Shown here in pieces: positions 136 to 7,179 of a DNA stretch of 11,630 bases. How positions within the stretch are numbered: the first letter of the stretch is position 1; each line of letters starts with the position of its first letter. The notes under the pieces are model-generated. The model saw only the letters and a program-made list of their open reading frames with translations, was not told the origin of the DNA and ran no database searches. Where the stretch lies: IMG/VR virus record IMGVR_UViG_2534681832_000020. One strand, given 5' to 3'. Made by a program: the position numbers and the translations under genes. Origin of the DNA: a virus (Duplodnaviria > Heunggongvirae > Uroviricota > Caudoviricetes).

Positions 136-852
136 TTATCCGCCCGCACCATTAACCGTTACCGTACACGCATCAGAGGTAATGCTCTGCGGCTGTTCTG
201 CAGAATCCGTTACCTCGCAGGTATAAGCCCCCTTATCACCTGACTGCGCATTGGCTTTACTGAAAGTGTCAGTAGTCTGTCCCTCTACCGGCTGACCATC
301 CTTCTTCCAGGCGTGTTTATAAGGCGGCGTTCCCCCGTTGACACTGACTGACATTGTCAGCAGCGCACCGGTATTCACGGTAAGTGTCTTCTCCGGATTT
401 TTCACAAACGCCAGCGGTACCACATAGGACACCGGTTTACCCTTCAGGCGAAGTGAAAACGTTGCAGCCACCACGCCGTTGGTACCGGATGACCAGGTGT
501 GCTGACGCACTTCCGCCAGGAACTTAAAGCCCTTACCGGACGGAAACTGCACCTTAAACGCATACACCGTGTCATTGTCATAGGCATCACGCAGGGCGTT
601 CTGGGCCTGATTCAGATAAAAATTACCCGACATGGAAATCTCGGACGACGCCCCCAGACCGTTGATGTTCTCCTGCTCTGTGGAGCAGAGCGTGGTCACA
701 TCAATATCCTGTTTCTGACCGGCGGTGAACTGGACTTCCTTGATGGTGCAGTCCAGGCGCAGATATTCCGCCTTATCCATAGTTTCAGCAGTCGCCGGGG
801 CAGATGAAATCATCACCTGCGTCAGCTGTGAGCGTTCATACAAAGCAGACAT
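136..852 (-). CDS. Major tail (tube) protein with C-terminal Ig-like domain
   Basis: 238-aa ORF with ATG at 852 preceded by AGGAGG 4 nt upstream. The central VQFPSGKGFKFLAEV region resembles lambda gpV-type tail tube proteins. The C-terminal ~80 aa (PPYKHAWKKDGQPVEGQ...GAYTCEVTD...CTVTV) has an immunoglobulin-like pattern. Confidence 0.75.
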   Translation of the reverse strand: MSALYERSQLTQVMISSAPATAETMDKAEYLRLDCTIKEVQFTAGQKQDIDVTTLCSTEQENINGLGASSEISMSGNFYLNQAQNALRDAYDNDTVYAFKVQFPSGKGFKFLAEVRQHTWSSGTNGVVAATFSLRLKGKPVSYVVPLAFVKNPEKTLTVNTGALLTMSVSVNGGTPPYKHAWKKDGQPVEGQTTDTFSKANAQSGDKGAYTCEVTDSAEQPQSITSDACTVTVNGAGG

Positions 853-865
853 TCTGCCTCCTGAT

Positions 866-890
866 AATAAAAAACCCGCACGCGGCGGGG
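866..890 (-). terminator. Terminator-like GC hairpin plus U-run immediately upstream of the major tail gene ribosome-binding site
   Basis: Minus-strand RNA reads CCCGC-cgcgu-GCGGG followed by UUUUUUAUU, then AGGAGG and the ATG at 852. The stem is only 5 bp, so any termination would be partial. Confidence 0.4.
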
Positions 891-918
891 TATGGGTTTT
901 GTAGAAAAAAAGAAAAAG

Positions 919-1263
919 TCACACCGTGACCTGAAACTCCAGGGTTGCACGGTAACAGCGGTTTTCCGGAATATAGTCCTGCATTTCACTGACGGATCCC
1001 GGGGCCAGCAGCATTATGGCTTCACGGGCGTCCTGACGTATCTGACGCGCCTGCGTCACAGTCCCGGCATAAACGTCTATCTGCACCGACACTGAGGACT
1101 CCGCCTGCCCGCCCATCACGTCCGCAGACACCGATGAAATCAGGCTGAAAACCACCCACGGAAGCGCCACCGACGGCCTGCCATCCAGCAGGGGGACCAC
1201 ATACGGGTACACCTGCCCGCCGGCAAGATGCGCCAGATGAGGATACAAATCCGCCTCCGTCAT
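919..1263 (-). CDS. Tail completion / tail terminator-like protein (DUF3168-like)
   Basis: 114-aa ORF whose ATG (1263-1261) overlaps the stop of the upstream gene as ATGA. Size and position between the gp10-like protein and the major tail protein match neck/tail-terminator genes. Family assignment is from memory, not a search. Confidence 0.5.
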   Translation of the reverse strand: MTEADLYPHLAHLAGGQVYPYVVPLLDGRPSVALPWVVFSLISSVSADVMGGQAESSVSVQIDVYAGTVTQARQIRQDAREAIMLLAPGSVSEMQDYIPENRCYRATLEFQVTV

Positions 1264-2062: not shown

Positions 2063-2389
2063 TCATAACACCGTCGGACAACGCAAATCGTAAATCAGCA
2101 CGGAAACAGAAAACGGCAGCTCCCCCTGAATCAGTTCTTCCCGCTCCGCAAGATCCGGATTCCGGTACAGCATCCCGGTCAGTCGCATGGCAGCCCCCTT
2201 CATCCGGGTTAATGCCTCGCCCGGGATCAGTTCACCGTCCTCACGAATCACTTTATCCCGGCTGCCCTGAATGTAGGCCAGCAGCACGGCGGTAGCCTGA
2301 CGAACCTTGTCCATCAGCATGTCATCATCCGCGTCATGGTCGACACGCAGATGTGCCTTGATCTCTTCCAGTGTCAGTAATGCCGTCAT
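2063..2389 (-). CDS. Head-tail connector (gp6-like DNA packaging / adaptor) protein
   Basis: 108-aa ORF with ATG at 2389 and AGGAGG 6 nt upstream. The N-terminal LTLEEIKAHLRVDHDADDDML motif is typical of gp6-like connector proteins. Confidence 0.75.
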   Translation of the reverse strand: MTALLTLEEIKAHLRVDHDADDDMLMDKVRQATAVLLAYIQGSRDKVIREDGELIPGEALTRMKGAAMRLTGMLYRNPDLAEREELIQGELPFSVSVLIYDLRCPTVL

Positions 2390-2468
2390 TTTCCGCCTCC
2401 TGCATCCCGTCCACGTTTGGCAGCCAGGGTCCAGCCTGATGAATGAGCTTCTCCGGGTTTATCACCGG

Positions 2469-3609
2469 TCATACTGTTGCAGTGCCACAGCGAGCCCCCC
2501 ACGTCACCGTATCGCCGGGGTGGTAGGTTTCACCGGCTCTGAACACACCGCGGTAGAGCATCACCGGCAGGGAAAATGTTTTTTCCGTACGCTGGCCACT
2601 GCTGTGCCGGATCACCACAGAGAACAACCGCTCACCCGTCATACTGACGTCAATATCCGCCACCCCGTCAACCAGGCATTCCCATCCCCGCATCCCGTGC
2701 GTTTTTTCATACGCCCGCCAGAGTCCGCCCTGGTGTGTGGCATACGTGCCCCGGGGAAAGGATTTTTGATCGTCAATGGCGGGGAGTATTTCCAGTGCCG
2801 TGGCATCACGCCCGTCCTGCGGAGCCGGCAGGGCACTCACCGCATCCAGAACCGCCTTCTGCAGAACATCCGGATCGTAGTCACGACCATCACGCGGAAC
2901 AGGAATATGGCTTACCGCCTCCTTCACCATCTGTTCAAGCATCGGACGCACATCATCCGGGGTGAGACTTTTACCGTCCGCCGGCTGCGGAATATTTGCG
3001 ACCGCATCATTCACCGCCTTCTGCAGTACTTCCGGATCGTAGTCACGACCGTCACGCGGAACAGGGATATGGCTTACCGCCTCCTTCACCATCTGTTCAA
3101 GCATCGGACGCACATCATCCGGGGTGAGACTTTTACCGTCCGCCGGTACCGGAATATTCGCAACCGCATCATTCACCGCCTGCTTCAGTACTTCCGGATC
3201 ATAATCACGACCGTCACGCGGAGCAGGGATATGGCTTACAGCCTCCTTCACCATCTGCTCAAGCATCGGACGCACATCATCCGGGGTGAGACTTTTGCCG
3301 TCCGCCGGTCTGCGGAATATTCGCGACCGCATCATTCACCGCCTGCTGCAGTACATCCGGATCATAATCACGACCATCACGCGGTACCGGAATGGTCCCC
3401 ACAGCGTCATCCACCATCGCCTGCAGAACCGGACGCACCTCATCCACCGTCACATGCTTCTGTAATACCGCCGACAGGGAAGCCAGTTTCTCTTCAAACG
3501 CTTGTGCCTGCGAGGCCATCTTCCCCTCAAATGTGCGCTGTAAATCCGCCAGCACCGTGGAGAATTCTTCTCCCAGTGCACGAATAATGGACAGTTCCCG
3601 TTCCGTCAT
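2469..3609 (-). pseudogene. Virion-module protein with ~54-aa tandem repeats, interrupted by a 1-nt insertion near 3309 (fragments 3277..3609 and 2469..3335)
   Basis: Two overlapping minus-strand ORFs in different frames carry the same repeat, IPVPRDGRDYDPEVLQKAVNDAVANIP-PADGKSLTPDDVRPMLEQMVKEAVSH. Aligning the 162-bp DNA units shows the unit at 3298 has one extra base (ccggTctgcgg versus ccggctgcgg in the unit at 2974). Removing it gives one ~379-aa ORF whose ATG (3609-3607) overlaps the portal stop as ATGA. Confidence 0.55.
2812..3460. repeat. About four tandem copies of a 162-bp (54-codon) repeat inside the repeat-protein gene
   Basis: The motif ccgtccgccgg recurs at 2974, 3136 and 3298 (period 162 bp). 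The flanking units at 2812-2973 and about 3298-3460 are more diverged; internal units are near-identical by eye. Confidence 0.8.
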
Positions 3610-5178: not shown

Positions 5179-7116
5179 TCAGCCGCCGGACGCACTGCCG
5201 TAGTTCACTCCGGTGATCACCGCCACCGCCGCGGTACGGCGACGACGCCAGTTGATCCAGCGCTCCGCACGGATGGCCACGCTGCCTGTCTGGAACATGG
5301 AAACCAGCTCCACCGGGGACGGCGTGGTACTGTCGCCGGTCGGCTCAGACTGCATTTCCAGTGATGCTTCACGGGACATATCCACTGCCACGCCGCCGTC
5401 ATCCGCCAGATAAATATCCGGCGCATTCACCAGCACCAGCTGGTCACCCACGTACTGGGAGACAATCACCGGCAGGCCCTGGAAGGAGCCACCCAGCAGG
5501 GTCATGTCCGGGTATTCCTTCTGACCCAGCGCATTTTTACGCATGGACAGTGCCAGGGCATTGGTGCTGGACATCAGCCAGACAGCACCAGTGGGCTGCA
5601 GATTTGCCGTCACAAACTGGCCAAACGCGGCCTCGGCATCCGCATCCGGGTTACCGGTTGATGCCGTGCCCTTCACATCATGGGTGATGGACGCCGGGGA
5701 GACATCTGCCACTGCGGCTTTTTTCGGGTCCACAAAGTCTGTATCCAGACGCGCCACTACCGCTTCCGCCAGCGCATTACGGACCAGTGCATCAGCAGCC
5801 GGACTGGAAAAACGGATCAATTCTTCCGTCAGTACCGCAATGGCCGACACTTTCGCATGACTGAAGGTGATGGATTCAAAATCAAACTTCGTCAGGGGTC
5901 TGGCCTTACCCTCACCCACCCAGCCGGCAGCACCGCCGGACACCTGGGCGTGCACACGGATATTGAACGGCACCTGACGAAGTGCAGGGATCCCGCCCTG
6001 ACCAAATCGCCCGATAATGGTCTGCGGACGCAGGTAATCAATAAAGTCCTGTGCGTATTCCTGATATTCAGACAGGCTGCCTGCCCACTGCGGATCCGTG
6101 GTGGTCCCCGCGCCCACTGCCGATTTCAGGACATGATGCAGACAACTGTCATCCGGATACTGACGACGGGCCACTTCCAGGGCTTCAGATCGGACGCCTT
6201 TAGCCGCAGCCAGCGATTTGGCAAAGCGGGCGAAGCCAATCCCCTTATCCAGTTTCTGCTCCACACGGATCACCGGCGCAGAAGCCACCGCGGCCACATT
6301 CCCGTTACCGGCCTGTTTCACCGGCTGCGCCGTGGCGGCCTTACCGGCTTCCAGTTCACGCAGGCGCTTCAGGTGCGCATCCACCTGACGGATTTCCGCT
6401 GCGGTGTTGTCGTAGTGCTCTTCCTCCTCCACATCCAGCGTGCGCCCTTCCTCTGCGGCTTTGGTCATGACCTCCTCAAGGGAGGCTGCCAGCGCTGCAC
6501 GCTTGTTTTCAAAACTTTTAATCTGTTCGCCAATATTCATTATGGTCTTTTCCTTATGAAAAACGGTTGTTGACTGTGCCGCAGCGCCGGCAGAAGATGC
6601 GATTTTCACCACCGGTTTCCGGTTGCCGGACGCGGCAGAAAACGGGCGGTCGTAAGATTTAATGGTCCGGATGGTGCATTCCGCATTCGCGGGCACGGTG
6701 ACGGCAGACACCTCCATCAGTTCCCAGCGCAGAAAATGCAGTCCGCCTCCGTCCAGAAAGGTGTATTCATGGGGACGGAAGCCCACGGACAGCCCCCTGA
6801 CCAGCCCGGTCTTAATGGCCGCCCAGACCTCATCCAGCCGGGCTGCCATCTGGGAGGGCATCCCCGGCTCCGGCTTCACCAGCATTGCCGTGATTTCCAG
6901 CCCTTCCCTGACCCGACGCACCGTACACTGGCCTACAGGGCGGGAATGGTCATGCTGCCAGAGAAACGGGATCGCACTGCCAAACTCCGCGCCCTCCGGC
7001 TCCAGGATGTCACCATCCCGATCCGGAGAAGGCGTTGACGCAATCCCGGTGATCACCCGTTCATCCTCACTGAAGGATTTCACCGTCAGCAGGGAACAGG
7101 CCCGTTTAAGAGTCAC
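5179..7116 (-). CDS. Fused prohead protease - scaffold-like coiled coil - major capsid protein (HK97 family)
   Basis: 645-aa ORF starting at GTG 7116 with AGGAGG 5 nt upstream. The N-terminus (ITGIASTPSPDRDGDILEPEGAEF...GLSVGFRP...VTVPAN) matches HK97-type prohead proteases. The middle (EQIKSFENKRAALAASLEEV...LKRLRELEAG) is a charged, coiled-coil-like stretch. The C-terminal ~400 aa matches HK97-fold major capsid proteins. Confidence 0.85.
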   Translation of the reverse strand: MTLKRACSLLTVKSFSEDERVITGIASTPSPDRDGDILEPEGAEFGSAIPFLWQHDHSRPVGQCTVRRVREGLEITAMLVKPEPGMPSQMAARLDEVWAAIKTGLVRGLSVGFRPHEYTFLDGGGLHFLRWELMEVSAVTVPANAECTIRTIKSYDRPFSAASGNRKPVVKIASSAGAAAQSTTVFHKEKTIMNIGEQIKSFENKRAALAASLEEVMTKAAEEGRTLDVEEEEHYDNTAAEIRQVDAHLKRLRELEAGKAATAQPVKQAGNGNVAAVASAPVIRVEQKLDKGIGFARFAKSLAAAKGVRSEALEVARRQYPDDSCLHHVLKSAVGAGTTTDPQWAGSLSEYQEYAQDFIDYLRPQTIIGRFGQGGIPALRQVPFNIRVHAQVSGGAAGWVGEGKARPLTKFDFESITFSHAKVSAIAVLTEELIRFSSPAADALVRNALAEAVVARLDTDFVDPKKAAVADVSPASITHDVKGTASTGNPDADAEAAFGQFVTANLQPTGAVWLMSSTNALALSMRKNALGQKEYPDMTLLGGSFQGLPVIVSQYVGDQLVLVNAPDIYLADDGGVAVDMSREASLEMQSEPTGDSTTPSPVELVSMFQTGSVAIRAERWINWRRRRTAAVAVITGVNYGSASGG

Positions 7117-7130
7117 ATCAGCCTCCTGAA

Positions 7131-7153
7131 AATAAAAAAACCGCCGCAGCGGT
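7131..7153 (-). terminator. Terminator-like GC hairpin plus U-run immediately upstream of the capsid gene ribosome-binding site
   Basis: Minus-strand RNA reads ACCGC-ugcg-GCGG followed by UUUUUUUAUUUUC, then AGGAGG and GTG 7116. It sits in the 63-bp gap after the terminase large subunit stop and has the same architecture as the site at 866-890. Confidence 0.35.
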
Positions 7154-7179
7154 TCATGATGGTTACAGGGTGAGCAGGG

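Follow-up and report, generated by a model that had tools for sequence, protein, structure and literature searches.

Results

Late-operon setting of the two elements

The stretch of DNA analyzed here (11,630 nucleotides; the window) is the structural part of a lambda-type, Q-dependent late operon and comes from an EHEC-type lambdoid prophage. Its DNA is 96 to 97% identical to that of Stx1a/Stx2-converting phages and of Escherichia phage JLK-2012, whose annotation agrees with our gene assignments for the window. We place the window in a Q-dependent operon because JLK-2012 carries a gene for a Q-like antiterminator on the same strand, 7.4 kb upstream of TerS, followed by the lysis genes; the role of Q in the late transcription of Stx phages has been described (PMC7547250). 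The genes of interest all lie on the minus strand (Table 1). The two largest intergenic gaps of the structural module, 63 nt between TerL and the capsid gene (7117-7179) and 66 nt between the tail-completion and tail-tube genes (853-918), hold the two elements considered here, which we call site 1 and site 2. The GTG start assigned to the capsid fusion aligns with the ATG of its relatives.

Table 1. Genes and sequence elements of the window, in order of transcription
Feature	Position	Strand	Details
HNH endonuclease	9517-9984	-	
TerS	8838-9401	-	
TerL	7180-8841	-	Stop codon 7182-7180
Spacer from TerL stop to site 1 hairpin	7156-7179	-	24 nt; sequence variable among relatives
Site 1 module, hairpin to start codon	7155-7114	-	GC hairpin, U-run, AGGAGG, GTG
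Site 1 hairpin	7138-7155	-	GAACCGC-UGCG-GCGGUUU; 7 pairs (4 GC), 4-nt loop; -10.2 to -10.7 kcal/mol
Site 1 U-tract	7128-7140	-	UUUUUUU-A-UUUU-C; first three U also close the stem; phasing GG(U)7AU
Site 1 Shine-Dalgarno (SD), capsid gene	7122-7127	-	AGGAGG, then CUGAU, GUG
Prohead-protease/major-capsid fusion	5179-7116	-	645 aa; GTG start 7116-7114
Genes between capsid and tail-completion genes		-	In order: 73-aa ORF, portal gene, disrupted gp62-like ORF, adaptor, head closure, gp10-like
Tail-completion gene	919-1263	-	TGA stop 921-919
Weaker tandem hairpin	905-932	-	AGGUCAC-GGU-GUGACUU + U5-C-U7; overlaps tail-completion TGA stop; status uncertain
Site 2 module, hairpin to start codon	889-850	-	GC hairpin, U-run, AGGAGG, ATG
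Site 2 hairpin	875-889	-	CCCGC-CGCGU-GCGGG; 5 GC pairs, 5-nt loop; -7.5 to -8.5 kcal/mol
Site 2 U-tract	863-874	-	UUUUUU-A-UU-A-U-C
Site 2 SD, tail-tube gene	857-862	-	AGGAGG, then CAGA, AUG
Major tail (tail-tube) protein, Ig-tailed	136-852	-	238 aa; ATG start 852-850

Two further features of the window deserve mention. The region at 2386-3609 (minus strand) is a homolog of JLK-2012 gp62, which is labeled "portal protein" in that phage, and no Pfam portal domain was found in the window copy. Relative to JLK-2012 it has a +1-nt indel near 3312 and a -1-nt indel near 2500, which leave the ORFs 3277-3609 and 2469-3335; the gene also contains internal repeats of ~162 nt. The broken copy could be a pseudogene of a defective prophage or the product of a sequencing error. 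The best sigma-70-like match in the window, TTCACA-16-TATAAT (11/12), lies on the plus strand at 10600-10627, antisense to the late genes and inside a TonB-family/hypothetical gene region, with no terminator found downstream. On the coding strand of the window there was no promoter-like site, and none whose transcripts the modules would block. An internal promoter paired with the hairpins was rejected on that ground, and a moron was rejected because the 63- and 66-nt gaps contain neither an ORF nor a promoter-like coding-strand site.

Layout of the two sites

The original prediction had placed the same module, a hairpin followed by a U-run, AGGAGG, and a start codon, on the minus strand before two genes, and both its description and its coordinates were right, as were the identities given to the downstream products (the prohead-protease/major-capsid fusion and the Ig-tailed tail-tube protein). 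At both sites the U-run is joined directly to the base of the stem, on the coding strand only, and the hairpins begin 24 to 29 nt past the upstream stop codon; the spacer at site 1 should be long enough to hold the hairpin outside the footprint of the terminating ribosome. The site 1 hairpin has a z score of -3.75, with 0 of 200 shuffled sequences folding as well. Both hairpins lie at the weak end of the range for intrinsic terminators (stem of ~5 to 14 bp, loop of 3 to 8 nt), and both U-tracts are of the terminator type (~7 to 9 nt on the transcribed strand, starting right behind the stem). Each site was picked up by a terminator-pattern scan of the window; taken as a whole, the consensus scan returned 12 hits in the window versus 10.6 ± 3.4 in shuffled sequences, which is no excess.

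Folding of the hairpins in isolation leaves the stretch of U-tract beyond the stem single stranded at both sites, directly next to AGGAGG. In a longer context the U-tract of site 1 is looped out within a longer-range helix that pairs part of the SD, and the minimum free energy structure around site 2 pairs the U-tract directly with the SD region, at a z score of 0.2 that does not set it apart from shuffled sequences. The capsid GTG lies only 5 nt past AGGAGG in the Escherichia coli clade (7114-7119, minus strand), while all other genera have an ATG 7 to 8 nt past the SD, and an out-of-frame AUG-UGA "start-stop" overlaps the GTG.

Several other identities were considered for these elements and set aside. 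The stems of 5 to 7 bp fall well short of the ~20 bp or more required of an RNase III processing site, and neither stem has the 5' A-tract of a bidirectional terminator. An Rfam search of the whole window at E ≤ 1 returned nothing relevant, its single hit being a chance-level snoRNA elsewhere (E = 0.053, below the gathering score), so that the elements do not correspond to an Rfam-described structured RNA. The small RNAs described from EHEC prophages (EcOnc, AgvB, AsxR, StxS, and HnrS) come from the moron site beside pR' or have start sites of their own, and none of the descriptions puts one between TerL and the capsid gene or ahead of the tail-tube gene. RefSeq has no annotation at the window's junction, which is present in 1,232 of 5,426 complete E. 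coli genomes, in up to seven copies per genome.

How alike the two sites are

When anchored at the SD, the 22-mers at 7142-7121 and 877-856 (minus strand) match at 20 of 22 positions, and a search of the window allowing up to three mismatches finds these two sites only, where 200 dinucleotide shuffles give an expectation of 0.00. The original claim that the sites are too similar to be chance therefore stands against random sequence; against the background of their own class the excess is only moderate. Capsid-site and tail-site 22-mers drawn from relatives and anchored in the same way share a median of 15 of 22 positions, because the layout of hairpin, U-run, GGAG, and ATG is common to all of these modules. 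The window pair ranks within the top 1% of all such pairs, and of 44 same-phage pairs, which are not independent of one another, none scores as high (next best, 18/22). The arms and loops of the two window hairpins are unlike, the match being confined to the U-run and SD part, and the excess similarity of the pair could reflect lineage-specific convergence or gene conversion.

Conservation before the capsid gene

A motif search in relatives had been proposed as a check, and in our hands the module proved to be strongly conserved. We compared ~160 close relatives from IMG/VR first and collected more distant loci afterwards, through a genome-contig scan that yielded at least 8 confirmed loci and three further viral-contig scans. 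In the close relatives the stems, U-runs, and SDs are unchanged while the loops and flanks vary. Of 67 distinct sequences upstream of the capsid gene, 66 retain the TerL|capsid module; they come from Enterobacterales relatives with capsid identities of 52 to 100% (Escherichia, Salmonella and Salmonella-type, Enterobacter, Klebsiella-type, Atlantibacter, Kosakonia, Pantoea, and Arsenophonus). Its common form is ACCCGC-NNNN-GCGGGU, U6, C(G/A)UUUC, (A/U)GGAG, and ATG. The loop varies freely, in at least 10 different forms, and GGAG is invariant among relatives.

The stem bears the marks of selection for pairing. In the window's clade it reads AACCGC/GCGGUU, versus the common ACCCGC/GCGGGU, a compensatory change from CG to AU. 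Over 33 distinct capsid-site sequences, 98.7% of cells are paired and three pairs have changed on both sides; none of 500 shuffles pairs as well, and no slid register comes close. The phasing downstream of the stem is kept as well: of 66 variants, 61 have their first purine exactly 8 nt beyond the final G of the stem, 64 have a U next to that purine on its 3' side, and 61 show the full signature GG(Y)7RU. From the start of the U-run to GGAG the distance is 13 nt in 55 of 66 capsid-site variants and in 45 of 71 tail-site variants. Taking both junctions together, 137 of 139 distinct variants retain the U-run, against a background of drift in the loops and in the intergenic sequence on either side.

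Outside the Enterobacterales, one alphaproteobacterial locus (L169, Chelatococcus) has, before its capsid gene, a hairpin GGCGG-gucg-CCGCC next to a GGGAG SD and no U-run, and another alphaproteobacterial relative (L170) has neither hairpin nor U-run there. It would seem that only Enterobacterales have the U-run part of the module.

Some relatives carry foreign DNA at this junction. In two of them, L282 (5471-5492 and 6170-6200) and L283, a KilA-N-like moron of ~0.7 kb separates the TerL stop from the ribosome-binding site of the capsid gene. On either side of the moron lies a copy of ACCCGC-NNNN-GCGGGUUUUUU, each a hairpin with its U-run. The hairpin and U-run appear to have been the point of insertion or duplication here, bounding the moron on both sides, and the hairpin/U-run/SD unit has stayed attached to the capsid gene despite the insertion. 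In L267 the loop of the hairpin before the capsid gene is itself interrupted by an insertion.

Conservation before the tail-tube gene and at other junctions

At the tail-completion|tail-tube junction, hairpin, U-run, and GGAG are found together in 71 of 72 distinct variants belonging to three diverged tail-tube subfamilies. The arms differ widely and are always complementary: in DNA letters they include ACCGCC/GGCGGT, GACCGC/GCGGTC, CCACC/GGTGG, ACCGGC/GCCGGT, and AACCCGCC/GGCGGGTT, and in RNA letters the pairs include CCCGC/GCGGG, which is that of the window, and AACCCGCC/GGCGGGUU. In one relative (L151), unrelated DNA extends up to ~10 nt before the site 2 hairpin, and in another (L136) the whole module upstream of the tail-tube gene has been replaced.

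We also scanned the coding strand of 16 representative loci for intergenic hairpins with a U-run. The TerL|capsid junction was hit in 14 of them, and the two that were missed (L298 and L227) do carry the module; the tail-completion|tail-tube junction was hit in 11. Other junctions with a hairpin and U-run were tail-tube|chaperone G (five loci), chaperone|tape-measure (six), capsid|next gene (two), and the upstream side of a 196-aa ORF that precedes the packaging genes (three to four). The layout is the same at all of them: hairpin, U6-8, a few nucleotides, GGAG, and ATG. Examples of such terminator-like modules after the tail-tube gene or before the tape-measure gene are at 16538 and 17678 in L164, at 13798 and 14515 in L166, at 14049 and 14793 in L298, and at 7443-7462 and 8398-8422 in HK97. 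One form before the tape-measure gene recurs from HK97 to distant prophages, namely, ...GCGGG(G/C)UUUUUUUAUGGGUGAAAU-AUG.

These results do not bear out a special motif that the two proteins needed in highest copy number would have in common, because relatives and HK97 have the same layout, in other sequences, ahead of the tape-measure, chaperone G, I, and J genes. The widely differing arms before the tail-tube gene show selection on the structure and the U-run and not on a sequence motif.

Within the window, it is nearly true that no other gene junction has the module, the exceptions being partial. The weaker tandem hairpin with its T-run (932-905) lies just upstream of site 2; it shows a compensatory change, GAUCAC/GUGAUC, in one clade of relatives and is lost in another. 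Right after the capsid stop codon, at 5164-5143 (minus strand), there is a strong 9-bp GC hairpin, ACGGGAGGC-GUGC-GCCUCCCGU, that has no U-run. Its 48-nt context folds at -20.8 kcal/mol (1 of 200 shuffles as good), and a GGGAGG that closely precedes the ATG of the 73-aa ORF is buried in it. This hairpin may stabilize the 3' end of the capsid mRNA or dampen translation of the gene that follows.

Discussion

Putative terminators within a Q-antiterminated operon

Reading the anatomy and the comparative data together, we hold with moderate confidence that both modules are intrinsic (Rho-independent) terminator signals placed inside a Q-antiterminated late operon, with a U-tract that runs into the SD of the next gene. 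A terminator fits best because the hairpin is joined to the U-run, the arrangement is strand specific, the spacer from the upstream stop codon is 24 to 29 nt, and the stems are kept by covariation. A search of the literature on internal late-operon terminators found nothing specific.

The mechanism that we propose would work as follows. Unmodified RNA polymerase, including polymerase reading through from moron or spurious promoters in the lysogen, would pause on the U-tract; the GC hairpin of 5 to 7 bp would then form, and the transcript would be released ~8 to 9 nt past the stem, a few bases before AGGAGG. Transcripts terminated in this way would carry no ribosome-binding site for the capsid or tail-tube protein. 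Q-modified polymerase arriving from pR' would ignore the signal and transcribe through it. In the read-through mRNA, the unpaired U-rich stretch 5' of the six-base SD would probably give an A/U-rich (S1-type) boost to initiation, and the hairpin would keep upstream coding RNA from pairing with the ribosome-binding site. Termination itself, the Q dependence of read-through, and the contribution to translation are in each case what we infer.

The direction of the effect matters here. The original prediction had offered weak intrinsic terminators that modulate the polarity of the late operon. The terminator part is supported by the anatomy, by the covariation, and by the annotation of HK97. Polarity through partial termination would run in the wrong direction, since capsid mRNA would fall relative to terminase mRNA if some transcripts stopped ahead of the capsid gene. 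Such signals make sense only if the late polymerase ignores them, as a partial stop would otherwise starve the phage of its most-needed protein relative to terminase. The modules would instead serve as checkpoints that make capsid and tail-tube expression strictly Q dependent and, in the lysogen, stop transcripts that start at moron or spurious promoters. The moron found between two hairpin and U-run copies in L282 and L283 fits the checkpoint role, because an insulator role predicts flanking terminators.

According to a recent preprint on intrinsic termination (HUB model, bioRxiv 2026), GC(U)7RU is the signature of strong termination sites and is similar to the elemental pause signal GS(N)7RY; its bubble-edge dinucleotides are G-C at -11/-10 and R-U at -2/-1, and the C at -10 is important. 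Compared with this signature, site 1 reads GG(U)7AU and site 2 reads GG-G(U)6-AU, so that G at -11, R at -2, and U at -1 are present while -10 is G and not C. Termination at both sites may therefore be weak; given the G at -10 and the short stems, an efficiency that is moderate and not strong would be expected.

Alternative explanations

The main rival is a primary role in translation, with the U-run serving as an S1-binding A/U-rich enhancer or standby site alongside the six-base SD, the hairpin acting only as insulation, and the resemblance to a terminator being incidental. We consider this unlikely as the primary function, although translation is likely to be an add-on. An A/U-rich tract lying 5' of a strong SD cooperates with it to stimulate initiation, and at 37°C the optimum, most efficient SD is AGGAGG (PMC2176067). 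In accord with this, the U-run abuts AGGAGG at both sites, its 13-nt distance to GGAG recurs in most variants at both junctions, the weak GTG start of the capsid gene could need help, and the whole unit remains with the capsid gene when a moron is inserted. What speaks against translation as the primary role is that an enhancer needs no GC hairpin 5' of its U-run, yet covariation preserves the stem, and that in relatives and in HK97 the same layout precedes genes of low copy number (tape measure, G, I, and J), so that the association with highly expressed cistrons expected of an enhancer is not found. In addition, TerS, the adaptor, and head closure in the window have an AGGAGG-type SD without a U-run, and an R-U phasing 8 nt past the stem is a feature of termination and not of initiation. 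The U-rich enhancer and stability readings, both of which had been put forward at the outset, could be additional roles of a putative terminator.

The typical setting for RNase E is a U-rich single strand beside a stem. The elements might accordingly be punctuation for RNA processing or stability, either 3' caps protecting the segments upstream or brackets around the capsid cistron after endonuclease cleavage in the AU-rich strand, which would give segments of the long late transcript different half-lives. The capsid gene is indeed bracketed by the site 1 hairpin and the 9-bp hairpin at 5164-5143, and in lambda and HK97, too, hairpins follow closely on the capsid gene. Cleavage in the U-run, however, would leave the hairpin on the terminase fragment and so stabilize an mRNA in low demand and not that of the capsid; the stems are far too short for RNase III; and a stability element has no need of the tight junction of hairpin and U-run or of the R-U phasing. 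Taken together, these points make the processing explanation decidedly improbable. Still less probable, to the point that we give it little credence, is the notion that the sites are leftovers or recombination joints, either terminators brought in by modules or morons or conserved short linkers at which head, terminase, and tail modules are swapped, with no present regulatory role and with a 20/22 match owed to gene conversion or duplication. Novel joints do occur exactly beside the hairpins (L282/L283, L151, and L267), and the window pair is the most similar of the 44 same-phage pairs (20/22 versus at most 18). A neutral relic is contradicted by the compensatory stem changes and by the U-run in 137 of 139 variants, and the arms and loops of the two window sites, as noted, do not match.

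One observation might join termination with translation. The fixed 13-nt distance from the start of the U-run to GGAG is not required by termination alone and hints at a role tied to translation. It is possible, and we put this forward as no better than a tentative extension of the terminator reading, that each site is a dual-purpose "conditional ribosome-binding site", a unit of ~35 nt that would be a terminator ending 4 to 5 nt short of the SD for unmodified polymerase and, for Q-modified polymerase, an S1-binding enhancer in a fixed 13-nt register from GGAG. Such a unit would account for the joint conservation of hairpin, R-U phasing, and SD distance, and for the fact that all three stay with the downstream gene when it moves. 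If it were real, the lysogen would make no capsid or tail-tube protein, both of which are frequent triggers of abortive-infection defenses.

Significance

The solid but ordinary conclusion is that the window elements are members of a known and already annotated kind, the routine punctuation of lambda-like late operons, and they reveal no new kind of element. If the sites do terminate unmodified polymerase, they would be part of what silences the structural genes of many EHEC prophages until Q is made. Terminators of this sort would be useful landmarks for late-operon annotation and for phage or reporter engineering. The comparative set assembled here, with its covarying stems, GG(Y)7RU phasing, and fixed SD distance, is a natural test bed for models of intrinsic termination and also bears on how termination signals and ribosome-binding sites share sequence.

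Comparison with known systems

The E. coli rnd leader, reportedly described by Zhang and Deutscher in 1992, is said to have a GC hairpin and U8 just 5' of the SD and to be a terminator look-alike whose U-run serves translation. The likeness to the window lies in the position of the look-alike directly upstream of an SD and in a weak start codon like that of site 1; the rnd element differs in belonging to the 5' leader of a monocistronic mRNA, whereas the window sites are intercistronic in a 20-kb operon. A/U-rich enhancers as a class resemble the window in that its A/U-rich tract lies next to a strong SD, a combination known to cooperate (PMC2176067).

Among terminators, tR' of lambda and the Stx phages likewise consists of a GC-rich hairpin followed at once by a U-tract of 7 to 9 nt, in an operon that is read by Q-modified polymerase in relatives of the window. 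It stands at the head of the operon, and its termination has been demonstrated, whereas the window sites are internal, short stemmed, putative, and fused to ribosome-binding sites. The moron terminators of lambdoid phages are also Rho independent and embedded in late operons, where they are tolerated because of antitermination, and the L282 hairpin flanks a real moron; the window differs in that neither an additional gene nor a promoter separates the hairpin from the preceding stop codon. Lambda itself has GCCGC-cugu-GCGGC-U7 directly before its capsid gene E (at D|E), inside its Q-antiterminated late operon and with a phasing that fits GC(U)7AC, and it has further hairpins after E and before J. 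Its capsid module is not homologous to that of the window, the SD of E is a weak GGGA with a second U7 after it, and there is no such element before the tail-tube gene V, where the gap is only 7 nt.

HK97 provides the closest parallel. A paper by Juhala et al. in 2000 is said to be associated with the putative terminators of its late operon. The GenBank record (NC_002167) lists seven "terminator, putative" features inside the late operon, and the one at 6692-6719, directly before the major tail gene gp12, reads AACCCGCC-agat-GGCGGGUU-UUCUUUUU-cc-AGGAG. HK97 differs from the window in the sequences of hairpin and U-tract, in a separate portal-protease-capsid order that leaves site 1 with only an analog, at portal|protease (3309-3335), and in having five more such sites that are absent from the window; all of its sites are annotated as putative in the record. 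The layout of GC hairpin, U-run, a few nucleotides, GGAG, and ATG is that of the window, and the window proteins are 67% (gp12), 75% (gp10), and 48% (tail terminator) identical to those of HK97. Since the junction is the same (tail terminator|major tail) and the flanking proteins are homologous, site 2 is the positional homolog of the HK97 putative terminator at 6692-6719.
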